This document shows, one piece after another, positions 1,777 to 31,186 of a DNA stretch of 41,426 bases (its first letter is position 1; the number at the start of each line of letters is the position of its first letter). The DNA is from a virus (Duplodnaviria; Caudoviricetes). The translations under genes were made by a program, and so were the position numbers. Location of the stretch: positions 1 to 41,426 of IMG/VR virus record IMGVR_UViG_3300033485_000041; one strand, written 5' to 3'. Below the pieces are notes generated by a model. It was not told the origin of the DNA and searched no databases. It saw only the letters and a program-made list of their open reading frames with translations.

Positions 1777-3464
1777 CCTATACCGAAAAGGCCAACAAGT
1801 ACGCCCTCGACGTAGTCGATGGGCGCATATTGGCATGCAAGTGGGTGAAGCTCGCGTGCAAGCGTCATTTCGACGATATAGAACGGTCGAAGGATGACTG
1901 GCCGTATGAATACGACCAGAAAAAAGCCGAGCGAGTCTGCCGGTTTTTCGAGATGTTGCCGCACGTAAAAGGAAAATGGGCCAAGAGGGATGCTAAAACA
2001 GGCAATGCAGCGACCATTAAACTAGAGCCGTGGCAATGTTTTATAGCCTGTTCGTTATATGGGTGGATCAACAAGGCAACAGGACAGCGCAGGTTCCGGC
2101 ATGCGCGACTTTACGAGCCTCGCAAAAATGCTAAGTCAACATTTGCCGCATCAATCGGTTGGTGGATGTTTCGCAAAGACGCCGAGCCTGGCGCAGAGGT
2201 GTACTGCGGAGCGACGAATCAAAAGCAGGCATACGAGGTTTTCAAACCAGCGTGGCAGATGGCCAAGAATATTCCTGCGCTCGCAGTTGATCTTGGCGTA
2301 ACGCTGACAGGTAAGACTGAGCCTGGGCCGATGCTCGCGATGGACGACGGTTCTAAGTTTGAAACGGTAATTGGCAAGCCGGGCGATGGTGCAAGCCCTC
2401 ACTGCGCCATCATAGACGAGTACCACGAGCATGATACGAGCGAACAACTCGACACTATGGTTACTGGCATGGGCGCGCGTGAACAGCCGCTTTCCCTCGT
2501 TATCTCAACCGCTGGGACGAATATCGCCGGACCATGCCGAGCGGACTGGAAGCAATGCGAGAAAATACTAGAGGGAATCATAAATGACGATACAACTTTT
2601 GCAATAATCTACACTATCGACGATCCAGACAAATGGGATACCGAAGAAGCATTGCGGATGGCGAATCCTAACTTCGATGTATCGGTCAGCCGAGAGTTCC
2701 TGATGGCTCAACTCGCGAAGGCACGCCGCGATCCGCGCGAGCAGGCGATTTTCAAGACGAAGCATCTCAATCTATGGGTAACGGCTAAGGCTGCGTATTT
2801 CAACACGCTAACATGGCAGAAGTGCGAAAACAAAAGCCTGAGCATCGACGATTTCACAGGGCAGCCATGTTTCCTGTCTGGAGACCTTGCGTCAAAGCAT
2901 GACATCGTTCCGTTAATGGCGCTATTTCCTAAGCCAGATGGCCGATATGCCGTGTTCGGGAAGTACTATTTGCCGCGCGCAACGGTCGAGCTTCCGGAAA
3001 ATCAACATTACAGGGCATGGGAAGCGGACGGCTTACTGACTGTCACCGAAGGAACCGTCACTGATTTGACTATTTGGGCGGCTGACGTAGCCGAATTGAA
3101 CCGAAAATTCGCTGTAGTCGAGATGCCAATCGACCCGGCTAGGGCATGGGGCATTTCTCAGGTACTGCTAAATGAGGGCGTGCCGGTAGTTGAATACAGA
3201 AATACGGTCTTGATGATGAGTGAGCCGATGAAACAACTCGACGCGCTTATACGTGCCGGTAAAATTGAACACAACGGCGATCCTATTTTGGCGTGGGCCT
3301 TGTCTAATGTGACAGGACAGCTTGACAGAAAAGATAACGTGTACCCAAATAAAGAGCGATACGAGAACAAGATAGACCCAGTGGTATCGCTCATTATGGC
3401 TTTGGGTCGAGCTATGCTGGCACCACAATCAACGAACGTTGTACCGCAGGTTTTTAGTTTTTGA
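1773..3464 (+). CDS. terL: terminase large subunit (HK97/Terminase_1 type)
   Basis: LEPWQ, Walker A PRKNAKST, Walker B IIDEYHE, GDLA..HD and KIDP nuclease motifs. Confidence 0.97.
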   Translation: MTYTEKANKYALDVVDGRILACKWVKLACKRHFDDIERSKDDWPYEYDQKKAERVCRFFEMLPHVKGKWAKRDAKTGNAATIKLEPWQCFIACSLYGWINKATGQRRFRHARLYEPRKNAKSTFAASIGWWMFRKDAEPGAEVYCGATNQKQAYEVFKPAWQMAKNIPALAVDLGVTLTGKTEPGPMLAMDDGSKFETVIGKPGDGASPHCAIIDEYHEHDTSEQLDTMVTGMGAREQPLSLVISTAGTNIAGPCRADWKQCEKILEGIINDDTTFAIIYTIDDPDKWDTEEALRMANPNFDVSVSREFLMAQLAKARRDPREQAIFKTKHLNLWVTAKAAYFNTLTWQKCENKSLSIDDFTGQPCFLSGDLASKHDIVPLMALFPKPDGRYAVFGKYYLPRATVELPENQHYRAWEADGLLTVTEGTVTDLTIWAADVAELNRKFAVVEMPIDPARAWGISQVLLNEGVPVVEYRNTVLMMSEPMKQLDALIRAGKIEHNGDPILAWALSNVTGQLDRKDNVYPNKERYENKIDPVVSLIMALGRAMLAPQSTNVVPQVFSF

Positions 3465-3476
3465 TAAAGTACTCCG

Positions 3477-3986
3477 ATGGGAAATAAACTAACCCCCGAG
3501 CATCTAAAAGAGATGCTACACTACAATCCTGAAACCGGAGTTTTTACGTGGCGAGTTTCGCGACGGGGTACTGCAAAGCAAGGCACCGAGGCTGGTTCGG
3601 TTAATGGTGACGGCTATCGTCGTATCACGATCAATGGATCGAAGTTTCTTGCCCACCGGCTCGCATGGCTTTATGTGCATGGCGTTTTGCCAGAGAATGA
3701 ACTGGACCATAAGAATCGCGACAAAGACGCTAATTGGATCGCTAATCTACGCGAAGCGACGCGCGTAGAGAACACGAGAAACAAGCGCCGCAATTCCAAC
3801 AATACGAGCGGTTTCAAAGGCGTAAGTTGGCATAGGGCAGCAAAGAAATTTTGCGCGGATATAGGAATCGCTGGAAAGACTATCCATCTCGGCTTATTTG
3901 AAACCGCCGAAGCTGCAAGCTCCGCCTACGAGGCCGCAGCCGCCAAGGCTTTCGGAGAATTCTACAGACAATCGCAAACCAATTAA
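3477..3986 (+). CDS. HNH homing endonuclease with C-terminal AP2 domain
   Basis: AHRLAWLY..G, DHKNR...N...NLR, N.SGFKGV, LG.F.T.E.A..AY. Confidence 0.92.
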   Translation: MGNKLTPEHLKEMLHYNPETGVFTWRVSRRGTAKQGTEAGSVNGDGYRRITINGSKFLAHRLAWLYVHGVLPENELDHKNRDKDANWIANLREATRVENTRNKRRNSNNTSGFKGVSWHRAAKKFCADIGIAGKTIHLGLFETAEAASSAYEAAAAKAFGEFYRQSQTN

Positions 3987-23384: not shown

Positions 23385-24028
23385 TGAGTTGCCTTTATTT
23401 TGGCGATACGTTTTTTCGATGTTATAGCCTGCTCGATAGTCAGGCCCTTTGCGATTCGTTGCCTTACTGTTTTTCTCGATATCCCTATCTTTTTACACCA
23501 ATCTGTAAGGCATAATTTTTCTCCATTTATCGTTATCCAATTAACACGACGGCAATTTCTTCTCTGTTCTGCGCGGGTAGCCCACTTGCAGTTTACTGCG
23601 GTGTAATCTCCGTTGTTATCTATCCTTTCAAGAGTGTGTGCGTTGGTTGGTCGCATACCCATATCTTTAATGAAGTTTACAAATTTCATCCATTTGTCCG
23701 ATACCTTTATGCCACGACCGCCATAATTGCAGAAACTTTTATTGGTTGGTTTAGTGCATCGTTCTATCATTGCGCACCAGACTTTATATTCTTTACTCTT
23801 ACTAAGGCCATGCGTTTTCATCATGTCGGATAGCTGCTTTTTATGCAAGCAACCGCATGATCTAGTTGTTCCAGCTCTTAGAGAACATGTGGTAACTTTC
23901 TTCGTGTTACCGCAGTCACATTTACATATCCATGAGCTGGCATCTTTTTCGGCATCCCACACGTACTCAATACATATAATATTCCCGAATCTATAACCTA
24001 ACAAATTCAACTTATTGGGTGGGTTCAT
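23381..24028 (-). CDS. HNH-type homing endonuclease (CxCDCG family)
   Basis: W.CKCDCG, SCGC, W..M..RC, YGGRGI, RIDNNG.Y...NC.WAT..EQ..N. Confidence 0.9.
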   Translation of the reverse strand: MNPPNKLNLLGYRFGNIICIEYVWDAEKDASSWICKCDCGNTKKVTTCSLRAGTTRSCGCLHKKQLSDMMKTHGLSKSKEYKVWCAMIERCTKPTNKSFCNYGGRGIKVSDKWMKFVNFIKDMGMRPTNAHTLERIDNNGDYTAVNCKWATRAEQRRNCRRVNWITINGEKLCLTDWCKKIGISRKTVRQRIAKGLTIEQAITSKKRIAKIKATQ

Positions 24029-24648
24029 AATTTCAAAAGCGGGATCGCGCGTTCGTATTCTGCTTTGTATCCAACGACGAAAGCGGATAAAGCATCCTTT
24101 AGTTTCTCAGTGAAATCATCGGGCTTTACGATGACGTGAAGCGGCTTCATGCCTGGATAGTAACTCCAAAAATGCCATTCGCTCAAACCCGTTATGACCA
24201 GTCCGCCGTGAATCTGCGCAGTCACATCAGGCGGAAGAATACCGTCCATTACGTAATCGGTGTGAACCATCGGGCTTTTACACTTTATTTCTAGACCGGC
24301 TACGTAGCTACCGCATTCAGTGATAAGCGAGTCTGGCGAGCATCCGCAAATACCATCATCCGCCAAGCAGAATCCTACCTGTTCAAGAGTAAGTCCCGTG
24401 TGCTTGGCGAACGCTTCGCGCGCTTCCGGTTCAAGTGCTGTACCTGCATCCGTATATTTGTTGCCCTTCCACTGCTCGTAGGTTGGGCAGAATGTTTCAG
24501 CGATTAACTCACGCATGTATCCATTGGCTGATGACGATGGCTTTTCCTTTGGCGTTATAATCTCAGAAAACCGTGAGGCTGATGGCCTGCCCTTTCTCAG
24601 CATGAGCCATTCCGGTGTCCCTTGAATTATGTCTTTGTAGACTTTCAT
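24025..24648 (-). CDS. YqaJ/lambda-exonuclease-family recombination nuclease
   Basis: QGT.EW...R.G...AS, G..LEP.AR, SPD, LEIKC; adjacent to RecT. Confidence 0.93.
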   Translation of the reverse strand: MKVYKDIIQGTPEWLMLRKGRPSASRFSEIITPKEKPSSSANGYMRELIAETFCPTYEQWKGNKYTDAGTALEPEAREAFAKHTGLTLEQVGFCLADDGICGCSPDSLITECGSYVAGLEIKCKSPMVHTDYVMDGILPPDVTAQIHGGLVITGLSEWHFWSYYPGMKPLHVIVKPDDFTEKLKDALSAFVVGYKAEYERAIPLLKL

Positions 24649-25424
24649 TCTGTGGGTTCCCCTTCCTCAATCGAAACGGCTGGCGTAATCGGCGGTTGAG
24701 TGAATGGATTGATTGGTTCAGCGCGCGCGGCATCCGGCGTGATATTGATCGGCTCGTCATCCTTCTCGATCTTCTCGCGCAGTTCGGCTGACAGAGGTAG
24801 CCACTTGGAGCAACGACGGAATGCCGTTTTCTTGGCCATCTCGTTGTAATCAGTTACCCACGGGCCAGAGTTTGCGGCGCGCGAGCGTTTGCGGATAGCG
24901 TCAACGTCATCCTTCGAAAGAACTTCATCCTTTACGCTTCCGTCCTTCATGACGACATGCGCATAAGCGGCATACATCGCACAGCGAGGTTTCTTGAAGT
25001 CGATTTCGTGCTTTTCGATTTTGCCCATGTTGTAGGCGAAAACATCATTTTCGCAAACGACATCCGCGTGGATCGTGGAAATCTCACCCGAGCGAATGGC
25101 AAGCTCAACCAGACCCTTGTAGTCGATTACGAGCGTTGCTTTGTCGCCGTAGGGAATCAGATGGGCTCGGCGTCCATCTGGCTCCAAGCCAAGCGCAGAC
25201 AGGTCCATGAGACACTGTAGGAGGCTTTGCTGCGTGCATTCTGCCAGCTTTGGCGTGCGGTTGAGCGCAGTAAGCGCGACCCTGGCGAAGCGGTCTGGCG
25301 TGCAGTGTTTTGGAAGCGCAAGCGCAACCTGATCTTTGAAGCGGTCTGAGGAAATCAGATCGCGAATTGTCTTTGGCTTTGCCTCTTGAGCGGCTAGCGG
25401 CAGTTGTGGGTCGGTTGGGTTCAT
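24645..25424 (-). CDS. recT: RecT-family single-strand annealing recombinase
   Basis: P.L.EC...S, LGLEP, LIPY, I.YKGL..L..RSG, GPW.TD..EMAKKT..RR..K.LP.S. Confidence 0.95.
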   Translation of the reverse strand: MNPTDPQLPLAAQEAKPKTIRDLISSDRFKDQVALALPKHCTPDRFARVALTALNRTPKLAECTQQSLLQCLMDLSALGLEPDGRRAHLIPYGDKATLVIDYKGLVELAIRSGEISTIHADVVCENDVFAYNMGKIEKHEIDFKKPRCAMYAAYAHVVMKDGSVKDEVLSKDDVDAIRKRSRAANSGPWVTDYNEMAKKTAFRRCSKWLPLSAELREKIEKDDEPINITPDAARAEPINPFTQPPITPAVSIEEGEPTE

Positions 25425-28377: not shown

Positions 28378-28614
28378 TTATTTTACTTCAGTCGTTTTCC
28401 ACACTGTTAACTTTTCGCTGTGCTTAGGCGTTACGCACTGGAGCCCAATTCCGGTTTGATTGAACAGCGGCTTTAGTAGGAACTCACGATGGCCTTCGTC
28501 GTCCCCGGTAAGGGCGCGGACCACTTTCCAAAGGCATCCGTTAACCTCCGGTGTAGTTATCGCCAGCATATCGCCCAAGTTAATCTCGCAGGCGCGTATT
28601 GTTTCGATTTTCAT
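28378..28614 (-). CDS. hypothetical protein
   Basis: 78 aa, ATGA overlap. Confidence 0.65.
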   Translation of the reverse strand: MKIETIRACEINLGDMLAITTPEVNGCLWKVVRALTGDDEGHREFLLKPLFNQTGIGLQCVTPKHSEKLTVWKTTEVK

Positions 28615-29345
28615 GAGAATAGCGCCTCCACGCGCTTCTGGAATTCATCGCGAGCCCACACGTAGATTTTGCTTCGATTGCTTCGGGCGAGGGCGAGGGC
28701 GCGGTCGCTGGCGAGGGCGAGGGCGCGGTCGAGGTCGAGGGCGTGGGCGAGGTCGAGGTCGCTGGCGAGGGCGAGGGCGCGGGCGAGGGCGTGGGCGAGG
28801 TCGAGGTCGAGGGCGTGGGCGAGGTCGAGGTCGCTGGCGAGGGCGAGGGCGCGGGCGAGGGCGCGGTCGAGGTCGAGGGAATGTAATTTCGACGCGGCAC
28901 TACGTGCCGCTATAAGCCCGTTCATGCTTCCGCTTGCAGCGAAATCACGAACGAACTTTGTCACCGTTTTCAATTCATCGCCATCTAAACCGACCCCTAC
29001 AAACACCCGGTCAAAAACATCGGCGACAAACTCCAATACCATGCGCTTGGAATCGCGGATCGCCATGCAGGTCCGCGTGCGGCCTGCCAGCTTGTCGGAC
29101 TCGCGAACGATTTCGCCGGAGACCTCGACATGGCAGAGAAGGAGCCCCGGCGCGTATTTGAGCGCATCGAGCGGATGCTCGCTGGCGTGCAGGCCGTTGG
29201 AGCAAGGAGCGATTTTACCCTCGGCGAAGAGCGTCGAGCCGACTTTAACCGGCTCGTCACTGTAGCGCGTGCGTGAGTTGTCCGTCAGGAAATGCCATGC
29301 TTTCACGGTCTCCGTCTGTTTATCGGAATCGATTTTTGAATTCAT
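28611..29345 (-). CDS. protein with C..GLHA....DAL.Y domain and DL/AL/AR/AH repeats
   Basis: First gene of leftward block; recurrent phage N-terminal domain plus low-complexity tract. Confidence 0.8.
   Translation of the reverse strand: MNSKIDSDKQTETVKAWHFLTDNSRTRYSDEPVKVGSTLFAEGKIAPCSNGLHASEHPLDALKYAPGLLLCHVEVSGEIVRESDKLAGRTRTCMAIRDSKRMVLEFVADVFDRVFVGVGLDGDELKTVTKFVRDFAASGSMNGLIAARSAASKLHSLDLDRALARALALASDLDLAHALDLDLAHALARALALASDLDLAHALDLDRALALASDRALALARSNRSKIYVWARDEFQKRVEALFS
28684..28877 (-). repeat. hexamer array GCCCTC/GACCTC/GCCCGC/GCCCAC/GCCAGC/GACCGC
   Basis: ~32 tandem 6-nt units in higher-order blocks. Confidence 0.93.
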
Positions 29346-29519
29346 AGGTTATGTTTACGCCGACACTAGATGCGCAAAAGTGGTCAATCGCAAGAAAAAT
29401 CTCCGCGCTATTATTTCTCGCGATCTAAGTCGTTGTCCGCAGGTATTTAGGATGCGAAGAAAATCTTTAGAGTTGAATTTGGCGAATGGAAGACTCACCG
29501 TTTGTGCGCAATGATTTCT
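29346..29519. promoter_or_regulatory. divergent promoter region
   Basis: AT-richer non-coding gap between leftward and rightward blocks; exact promoters not resolved. Confidence 0.5.
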
Positions 29520-29633
29520 GCCTAACACCGCGGATGAGCCGCGACCCTGAGAACAATCCTATGAAAAAGAAAACACTGAAGACTCAAGCCCAACGACCCG
29601 TCAGGGTCGTTGGCTCTGGACGCCTGGTTAGCG
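29520..29633 (-). mobile_element. attC-like site 1 (114 bp, degenerate)
   Basis: GCCTAAC...GTTAGCG ends; inner inverted repeat 29536-29550/29601-29616 with extra base. Confidence 0.6.
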
Positions 29634-29881
29634 GTCAATGCCGCGCCTGTGAAATATTCGGCGATGGGCCATGTTCGGCCAAGGCGTTCGAGCACATGCA
29701 GGAAAAAGCAGCACGAGCGATACACGCAGAACACAACCGCCACGAAGGCCAAGACATTCCGTGGATCGGACTGCACCGTTTTCAGCGCATAAAATATCGC
29801 CTGAAAGGCTACGCCGTGCTGATCGCACTCGGAATACCTGCACCCAAGACCGCTAACATCCGCCGATCAGACACGCCGTAG
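29561..29881 (+). CDS. cassette 1 hypothetical protein
   Basis: ATG inside site 1 (AATCCT-ATG); stop in loop of site 2. Confidence 0.65.
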   Translation: MKKKTLKTQAQRPVRVVGSGRLVSGQCRACEIFGDGPCSAKAFEHMQEKAARAIHAEHNRHEGQDIPWIGLHRFQRIKYRLKGYAVLIALGIPAPKTANIRRSDTP

Positions 29882-29909
29882 GGCGTTGTCTGTATCGCGC
29901 TGGTTGGGG
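29851..29909 (-). mobile_element. attC-like site 2 (59 bp, canonical spacing)
   Basis: Minus strand: CCCCAAC-N5-CGATACAG...CTGATCG-N6-GTTAGCG, with two extrahelical bases. Confidence 0.75.
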
Positions 29910-29954
29910 CTCCGATTTTAACGCAACGACAACAATCAAATAACAGGAAATATT

Positions 29955-30266
29955 ATGAGTGGTGGAAGCTGGGATTACTTTTACGGGCGACTTGAAGAAG
30001 TCGCTTCACGTCTTCAATGCGGGCGCGACCCGCTCCGCAAAGCATTTGGCTCGCATCTCCAAAAATGCGCGAAGGCGCTCCACGACATCGAGTGGGTGGA
30101 CTCGTGCGACTCTGCGCCGGGCGACGAAGTGAAGGCGATCAAGGCCGTGCTCGGCACCGACGGCCCGGCGCTCGTTCTTTCTGAATCTCGCAAGCAGGCA
30201 GAAGCGGCGCTAGAACAACTCAAGGCGGCGCTGGCAGATTGCCCTAACAACCCGCAACAGCCATGA
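29955..30266 (+). CDS. cassette 2 conserved phage hypothetical protein
   Basis: MSGGS.DY, ALHD.EW..S.D motifs; stop inside site 3. Confidence 0.8.
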   Translation: MSGGSWDYFYGRLEEVASRLQCGRDPLRKAFGSHLQKCAKALHDIEWVDSCDSAPGDEVKAIKAVLGTDGPALVLSESRKQAEAALEQLKAALADCPNNPQQP

Positions 30267-30327
30267 CGACGCCCAATAAAACAGAACGGGCCAAGACAGG
30301 GCTAGGCGCTGTGGCCGCTGGTTCGGC
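30242..30327 (-). mobile_element. attC-like site 3 (86 bp, degenerate)
   Basis: CCCTAAC...GTTCGGC ends; GCAACAGC/GCTGTGGC inner arms; CGCTG-GTT end shared with site 2. Confidence 0.5.
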
Positions 30328-30526
30328 TGGGTCAACGTTAGTCGATGCAACACTGCTTATAGAGCGAATCATCACGCACATCGCTGCGAACAAAAACACG
30401 CCGTTTCTTCAGGAGCAGATTATGCTCGCTAAGTGGAGCGCCGAAGAAATCGGACCTAGACTAGCAAAGCTAGCAGGATGCCGATGGATGCCGAATAAGG
30501 CGACCAGTACGCCCCGCGCTAGGTAA
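30263..30526 (+). CDS. cassette 3 hypothetical protein
   Basis: ATG inside site 3; runs through terminal core GCCGAAT (30490-30496). Confidence 0.6.
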   Translation: MTTPNKTERAKTGLGAVAAGSAGSTLVDATLLIERIITHIAANKNTPFLQEQIMLAKWSAEEIGPRLAKLAGCRWMPNKATSTPRAR

Positions 30527-30538
30527 CCGGAAACCGAT

Positions 30539-31186
30539 ATGACCGACGACATGTTCAGGCAAGTTTCTTCGCCAGAAGAGCGCGAGCCTAATAAGCAAAC
30601 GCCAGGGCAGGCCATCGCGGGCCGGCTCTGGCAAGAAAAGGCCAGGGCCGGCAAGCCGATGACTGAAGCCCAAGTCGGCAATGTCATTGACGGCATGCTC
30701 AAGGAGCTTGGCATGTCCAAGAAGCGGGCGCGCGTCGGGGGCAGAGATTTGCTTTTTGACGCCCTTTGCGTGTCGTGCGGTATAAACCCTCAAGAGGTGA
30801 CGCGCATGGCCGCTACTGGGATTGGAACGGCCCTAGCTGACATCGCAGCGGTGACGCCAAACCTTACGCCGGAGGAATTCGGCATTCGGGCGTCGAAATA
30901 CCGTCGAGAGCATCCCGACTGGGAATTGACGCCAACCGCGCTTTGCACGCACTGGGGGGAGCTCGGTACGGGCGACGCTGGGCAGGCCGTGGCCTCAATG
31001 CACGCGGCGGAGCCTAACGGGTGGCAGGAAGTGGCGATGCGCATGTTTCAAGAGGCTGAATGGGATGCTGGATCAATAGCCGTCATCCTGCAAAACGGAT
31101 GGGGTGGCATGTCGCTCGGACACCGCAAGGCGATCCAGAATCGAATCGCCCGTTCAGCCGTCGTCACAAGAAATATTTCAGATTGA
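30539..31186 (+). CDS. hypothetical protein, possibly replication-initiator-like
   Basis: 215 aa; TP.AL..HW..L helical motif; function inferred weakly from position. Confidence 0.6.
   Translation: MTDDMFRQVSSPEEREPNKQTPGQAIAGRLWQEKARAGKPMTEAQVGNVIDGMLKELGMSKKRARVGGRDLLFDALCVSCGINPQEVTRMAATGIGTALADIAAVTPNLTPEEFGIRASKYRREHPDWELTPTALCTHWGELGTGDAGQAVASMHAAEPNGWQEVAMRMFQEAEWDAGSIAVILQNGWGGMSLGHRKAIQNRIARSAVVTRNISD

Follow-up and report, generated by a model that had tools for sequence, protein, structure and literature searches.

Integrons are regarded as bacterial tools. The closest systems described from phages are the 17 CALINs found in 10,705 phages by Qi, Rajabal, Ghaly, Tetu, and Gillings (2023, PMC9892861), in whose study five of six tested phage attC sites recombined with IntI1. 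Those arrays resemble the one described here in being clusters of attC sites without an integrase and in carrying small genes and DNA methyltransferases as cargo. The main text of that paper contains no use of the words reverse, antisense, opposite, or in trans and speaks of arrays in "divergent directions"; unlike the present analysis, it describes neither cassette-precise variation between phages nor a matching host integron. When sequences from that work were re-examined, the TJE1 array had canonical polarity, and in P12002L_attC1 the bottom strand was the coding strand. The MW202573 array is probably reversed too (by eye and from two weak model matches), so that reversed arrays were already contained, unremarked, in those data. 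P12002L_attC1 is the tested site whose junctions with IntI1 were unverified (PMC9892861).

For bacterial genomes, attG insertion, SALINs, and small CALINs have been described, in which GWT sites outside integrons receive cassettes through IntI (Loot et al., bioRxiv 10.1101/2022.09.11.507474). Insertion of this type could have been the route by which a first attC site entered a phage. The cassettes treated there are canonical, and no separate mirror-image pool with phage genes is described. The chromosomal integrons of Opitutaceae (Nibricoccus and others) share with our array the attC sequence family, the per-cassette complementarity of cores, and a similar cassette size, but differ in having their own intI and attI and in carrying genes on the top strand that end before the site. 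The literature searched, which lay mostly outside subscription journals, yielded no description of reversed-polarity phage cassettes. Phage CALINs as such have already been published (Qi 2023).

The locus was studied in a stretch of viral DNA of 41,426 nucleotides, referred to below as the window. A family scan of its 82 ORFs identified it as a 41.4-kb HK97-like tailed phage with recognizable terminase, portal, capsid, tail, RecE-like, RecT (RecE/RecT genes at 24025-25424), ssb, and several HNH genes; it opens with the terminase region and closes with an HNH gene. The record is linear, with a CheckV completeness of 54%. The array sits after an intergenic region at which genes diverge (29345/29486). 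A promoter search gave no rightward sigma-70 consensus at the array, and its promoter is therefore unplaced. The DUF7666 gene on the minus strand (28611-29345) contains low-complexity hexamer repeats at 28700-28880, which encode runs such as LDLARALA. No match to the array was found among 50,697 cultured phages, an Rfam scan returned two weak hits, both unrelated, and a 215-amino-acid gene of the window had a single relative.

With a probability of about 75%, judged from sequence, the locus is an array of three integron-type cassettes in a phage without an integrase, with Opitutaceae-type attC sites and every gene on the recombining strand, the cassettes likely being excised and inserted between the AA and C of their cores by the integron integrase of a likely Opitutaceae host. 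It is a real CALIN of a mirror-image kind: at least two attC sites lie in one orientation (two significant and one weak, on the same strand), with no integron integrase nearby (no PF00589 match in the record). Its working is integron-like, but it is not a complete integron, as no intI and no host-type attI were found. The sequence-only inference, that accessory genes are acquired or shuffled with a host IntI-like enzyme in trans, is supported.

Re-reading of the sequence placed three sites and a lone core exactly where the sequence-only reading had put them. Site 1 occupies 29520..29633 on the minus strand, which is its canonical top strand, the plus strand being the bottom, recombining strand. 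Site 2 (59 bp, 29851..29909) and the degenerate site 3 (30242..30327) also lie on the minus strand, and the lone core, GCCGAAT, is at 30490-30496. Sites 1 to 3 have inverted AAC/GTT cores whose separation lies within the 55 to 140 nt required of an attC site. Paired L boxes with extrahelical bases opposite the bottom-strand AAC were found in full in site 2, in the inner stem of site 1, and in part in site 3. For site 2, the reported length of exactly 59 bp, the order R''-5-L''(8)...L'(7)-6-R', and the two extrahelical bases all held, with the correction that this order is read on the minus strand. The extrahelical bases are two T residues on the plus strand, at about 29886 and 29893. The first of them is 10 nt from GTT, compared with 9 nt in 28/28 bacterial sites, and, relative to 28/28 bacterial sites, the R-L spacing is longer by one base in sites 1 and 2.

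A covariance model was built from 28 nonredundant of 57 bacterial (Opitutaceae) attC sites. In its alignment, 94.7% of cells fit the pairing of the named structure, which had been read from the same sequences, and two-sided changes occur at 8/17 pairs. Sites 1, 2, and 3 took ranks 1 to 3 of 25 matches in the window, on the plus strand, with 37.2 bits (E 6e-8), 28.0 bits (E 2e-5), and 13.3 bits (E 0.13), respectively, these E-values being rough. Against this independent bacterial model, the scores of sites 1 and 2 stand far above background. The score of site 3 is by itself not significant; relatives of this site in the partly related record L001 (41,364 bp, terminal repeats) and in L071, L080, and L093-L095 scored better. 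In related arrays, too, the model detects numerous sites. Scanning generically for AAC/GTT proved too loose (15 matches per strand), and two 17-nt patterns returned mostly chance matches in viral contigs, with 0/10 and 2/21 being sites outside the L001 record.

The predicted share of the recombinogenic fold was 0.30 for site 2 in the array and 0.50 for the same site as a circle, 4e-5 for site 1, and 1e-4 for site 3; the bacterial median was 0.10. In this genome, site 2 looks recombination-competent; recombination may be slow or dead at sites 1 and 3 as well as at the AAT core that ends the array. In site 1, an inner hairpin competes with the site fold, 29587-29615 being an inverted copy of the right arm. 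A homologue of site 1 in L174 (3760-3873) accompanies another gene, shows matched changes in both arms, and keeps the inner hairpin, the inner inverted copy changing jointly with both arms. This copy may point to a fold-back copying step when the site or cassette formed; alternatively, it may damp recombination.

The lone core belongs to a terminal half-site (30490..30541, minus strand) that consists of a core and one arm only and ends at the ATG of the next gene. The core reads AAT instead of AAC, a change that leaves the encoded Asn of ORF3 intact, and has no partner core. The L001 array ends alike, and 24 nt of its arm match a full L094 site exactly. Half-sites with a core and one arm were seen at the right end of several arrays (L173:4560-4600, L174 about 3250-3330, and L001:3287-3338). 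Such ends may be first sites that have decayed or, alternatively, an entry site of phage type, and the terminal half-site of the window could serve for cassette entry. Its assignment as a host-type attI was rejected, since it resembles an attC arm and is unlike the attI of five Nibricoccus integrons (read by eye).

In the window, the genes lie on the bottom (recombining) strand, each preceded by its own site, which is the opposite of the arrangement in bacterial integrons and a feature absent from the sequence-only reading. Extrahelical bases opposite the AAC arm mark the bottom strand (Nivina et al., PMC5027507). The unpaired T residues of site 2 are on the plus strand opposite AAC, and hence the coding strand is the bottom strand. 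A canonical, plus-orientation reading was ruled out by the extrahelical bases, the strand of the model matches, and the unit shared with L001. With site pairs more than 1300 nt apart skipped, 12 phage-type arrays (4 of them metagenome or bin contigs of putative viral nature) gave 37 intervals: 28 bottom-coding, 6 ties, and 3 top-coding, two of the last being artifacts that were kept in the count (a GTG start and an Acb2 gene). One Nibricoccus integron gave 0 bottom-coding and 27 top-coding intervals and 1 tie among 28. At 56 other loci of the ORF2 family, most of which have no detected site, the model matched 15 times in 6 loci, always on the coding strand, so that the layout reaches other attC types. 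Between reversed sites at L093:930-1330 (a 1.5-kb contig), one gene lies on the other strand and begins in the manner of a bacterial cassette; it may be a cassette of host polarity within a phage array. The cassettes of the window thus depart from the canonical order, a gene on the top strand followed by attC, and share with canonical cassettes the complementary cores at both ends.

Measured from the cut between AA and C to the next such cut, cassette 1 (29526..29856, 331 bp) consists of site 1 and the ORF1 body, cassette 2 (29857..30247, 391 bp) of site 2 and the ORF2 body, and cassette 3 (30248..30495, 248 bp) of site 3 and the ORF3 body; cassette 2 is the unit common to L001. All three ORFs are on the plus strand. 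ORF1 (29486..29881; 131 amino acids from 29486, 106 from 29561) has a leader encoded by site 1, within which in-frame starts lie (ATG 29535 and 29561), and a stop in the tip of site 2; it matched no PHROG or Pfam family. ORF2 (29955..30266, 103 amino acids) belongs to a widespread phage gene family with 57 viral loci, its atlas look-alikes being viral hypothetical proteins, and its stop codon and the start codon of ORF3 share an ATGA within site 3. ORF3 (30263..30526, 87 amino acids) stops in the terminal half-site. The ORFs had been described as alternating with the sites; instead, they start and stop inside them. A start codon lies within 2/3 window sites (ORF1 in site 1, ORF3 in site 3), and 32/41 phage-type sites, versus 7/28 bacterial sites, contain a start from which the frame stays open across the arm.

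The cores flanking each cassette are complementary, as the sequence-only reading had it: 10/10 contiguous bases in cassette 1, 7/8 with one G:T in cassette 2, and 6/7 in cassette 3, where AAT replaces AAC. This complementarity had been called an established footprint of IntI-mediated insertion; it does show cassette origin and says nothing of present activity. Across the 12 phage-type arrays, adjacent cores matched at 4/4 variable bases in 27/37 cassettes, against a mean of 4.8 and a maximum of 13 in 20000 shuffles. Cores within one site matched at the variable bases in 6/37.

Cassette-precise variation among relatives had been anticipated, and L001 indeed exchanges one unit at AAC cores. It matches window positions 29855-30252 with 99.5% identity, with unrelated sequence on either side. 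The shared stretch begins with the site 2 AAC, ends a little beyond that of site 3, and contains the whole of site 2 and ORF2; the unit is therefore a site plus its downstream gene, as predicted for a minus-strand crossover between G and TT. At the left boundary of cassette 2, AAC alone is common to the window and L001, and at the right boundary AAC(AACC). Other cassettes lie to the left of the shared unit in L001 and a half-site to its right. A neighboring gene shared with L001 is about 90% identical versus 99.5% for cassette 2, which indicates that cassette 2 moved recently. In L001, an HNH gene (L001:1173-1688) precedes an array of five cassettes. The 9-mer directly before the first core is common to the window (29486-29526) and L001, and the window may have lost an L001-type HNH gene ahead of its array.

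Part of the region is contained in 15 sequencing runs, and the contigs of 8 were examined, with run X4 giving none; L099 (the window's own record) and run X1 (possibly its source) were left out of counts. In run X2, both flanks were present with 2175 other letters between them, a third array version that departs from the window at 29489. The L001 arrangement of cassette 2 recurred in runs X5 and X6, from two studies. On low-depth contigs, gene 1 led into a different site immediately after the AAC at 29857 (run X8), and the gene 3 body was followed by other site-like sequence after 30491 (run X7). In run X8 and in protein P0002, gene 1 retains the right arm of site 1 (22 nt shared) but has another loop, in run X8 before 29608, so that the break lies inside the site. 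Among 14 ORF1 homologues, 10 have the same body with different ends, and in 4 the site-encoded leader alone is shared; in P0012-P0015, the site-1 leader stands on unrelated bodies. Five ORF3 homologues have the same body up to PN, which is the core, with differing leaders and tails. By these contig and homologue boundaries, most breaks fall on the AAC core, and a second class falls on the other core or close to it. No cassette circle junctions were found in the contigs of the 8 runs, although contigs cannot show their absence. In a tree of 40 ORF2 proteins, built to count cassette captures, the branch leading to the window was long (p-AU 0.31), and L033, which duplicates L024, is unlabeled. 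Within the L080 array, near-identical sites at 1692-1779 and 3457-3544 are accompanied by repeated downstream sequence, which suggests a duplication or deletion product.

Exchange of this kind could also be produced without IntI if the sites, though host derived, were now short shared repeats at whose arms the phage RecE/RecT swap genes by homology. We consider this unlikely. The phage does encode a RecE-like exonuclease and RecT, one break falls within site 1 at a shared 22-nt arm, and the predicted folding of sites 1 and 3 is poor; however, only AAC is common to both phages at the left end of cassette 2, and swapping by homology leaves unexplained the persistent pairing of both arms with extrahelical bases as well as the origin of each cassette's own complementary cores. 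Less probable still is that the sites are former IntI substrates in an array that has become fixed in the lineage, where they are retained as start, leader, and stop signals. The AAT at the last core, the truncated last site, the weak site 3, the competing hairpin in site 1, and the higher share of phage-type sites with a start and open frame would suit such a relic, but the recent movement of cassette 2 and the third array version between the same flanks in run X2 argue against it.

The sequence-only statement that no tyrosine recombinase is recognizable in the genome agrees with our search, in which neither PF00589 nor PF00239 matched in the window. As the window is linear and 54% complete, this result alone falls short of proof. 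PF00589 likewise had no match in 8 other array-bearing virus records, two of them with terminal repeats; L001 showed none. It is very improbable that another recombinase acts on these sites, whether a phage-borne or prophage integrase or host XerC/D: although the link to a host IntI is only indirect and the window possibly incomplete, no tyrosine recombinase was found in 9 virus records, and the sites resemble host-integron sites in sequence as well as shape.

Hosts were sought with a two-arm pattern, drawn from the phage sites, over 185,579 species genomes. This yielded 70 loci, often with multiple matches, of which 47 (many overlapping) were titled Verrucomicrobiota or Opitutae; 22 loci without Verrucomicrobiota titles, L146 apart, were left out of inspection. 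The Verrucomicrobiota loci are arrays on chromosomes whose genes occupy the other strand, and a structural scan of 21 loci found types matching window sites 1 and 2, from which the pattern had not been built. The search for intI in candidate hosts, as had been proposed, was positive: matches over the TIGR02249 cutoff lie beside the arrays in 3/5 genomes and occur in 124/301 Opitutaceae-family genomes. Several family genomes have 2 to 4 intI genes, and Nibricoccus L113 and G001-G003 contain large chromosomal integrons in which an attI motif is conserved and gene-poor cassettes recur. The phage ssb (36697-37032) has a DNA-level match in 242/251 family genomes, the comparison being confined to the family. 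Its best match, 87% identity over 336 nt, is in Nibricoccus G003 and is usable as a host marker. The host family is likely Opitutaceae. An Opitutia bin with IntI includes a phage-like contig, L164, with a reversed array and a Dam gene. ORF2 was absent from the 301 family genomes in a search run without a positive control.

In the mechanism that we propose for IntI-driven exchange, the coding strand would fold into attC hairpins during infection, and the host IntI would cut in AAC, releasing circles of a site and its gene. The circles would reinsert at other attC sites of the same or a coinfecting phage; this attC x attC insertion is proposed because no host-type attI was seen. Owing to the mirrored polarity, inserted genes would face the phage rightward early transcription, from which they would be expressed, and since the sites provide starts, leaders, and stops, any cassette order would stay translatable. 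A rarer exchange at the other core or at shared arms, by top-strand recombination or RecE/RecT, would pair one gene with different sites. Top-strand recombination is reported to be 1000- to 10,000-fold rarer (PMC5027507), and the second class of breaks may therefore need RecE/RecT; given that some breaks lie inside a site, phage RecET may contribute. The lagging-strand template favors attC folding (Loot et al. 2017, PMC5371416). Speculatively, if gene direction and fork movement coincide, the lagging-strand template would be the coding strand, favoring attC folding. Equally speculatively, the mirror polarity would silence cassettes that cross between the host and phage pools.

Integrons have lately been seen, in two preprints, as stores of anti-phage genes. 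Phages appear to use integron machinery for accessory genes of their own. A reversed cassette on the minus strand of L080 (1822-2145) encodes a protein with an Acb2/Tad1 hairpin domain, over the Pfam cutoff, and by its sequence is likely a counterdefense gene. Other cassettes carry a Dam methyltransferase (L164:8022-8525, over the cutoff) and a probable SAM-dependent methyltransferase (L173:4006-4566). We suggest tentatively, at rather less than even odds, that phages run their own mirror-image cassette pool on host IntI, that reversed polarity separates the two pools, that having the recombining strand as the coding strand may raise turnover, and that the arrays show ordinary phage genes becoming cassettes. 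If so, host cassettes, many of them anti-phage, would be silent in a phage array, and phage cassettes such as those for Acb2/Tad1 and methyltransferases would be silent in a host integron. Use of integron machinery by phages would give part of phage mosaicism a site-specific mechanism, with short, testable substrates and a named host integrase. The arrays also bear on how cassettes arise, one site leading different genes and the ORF2 family being mostly without a detected site, and they would be a place to watch cassette birth.
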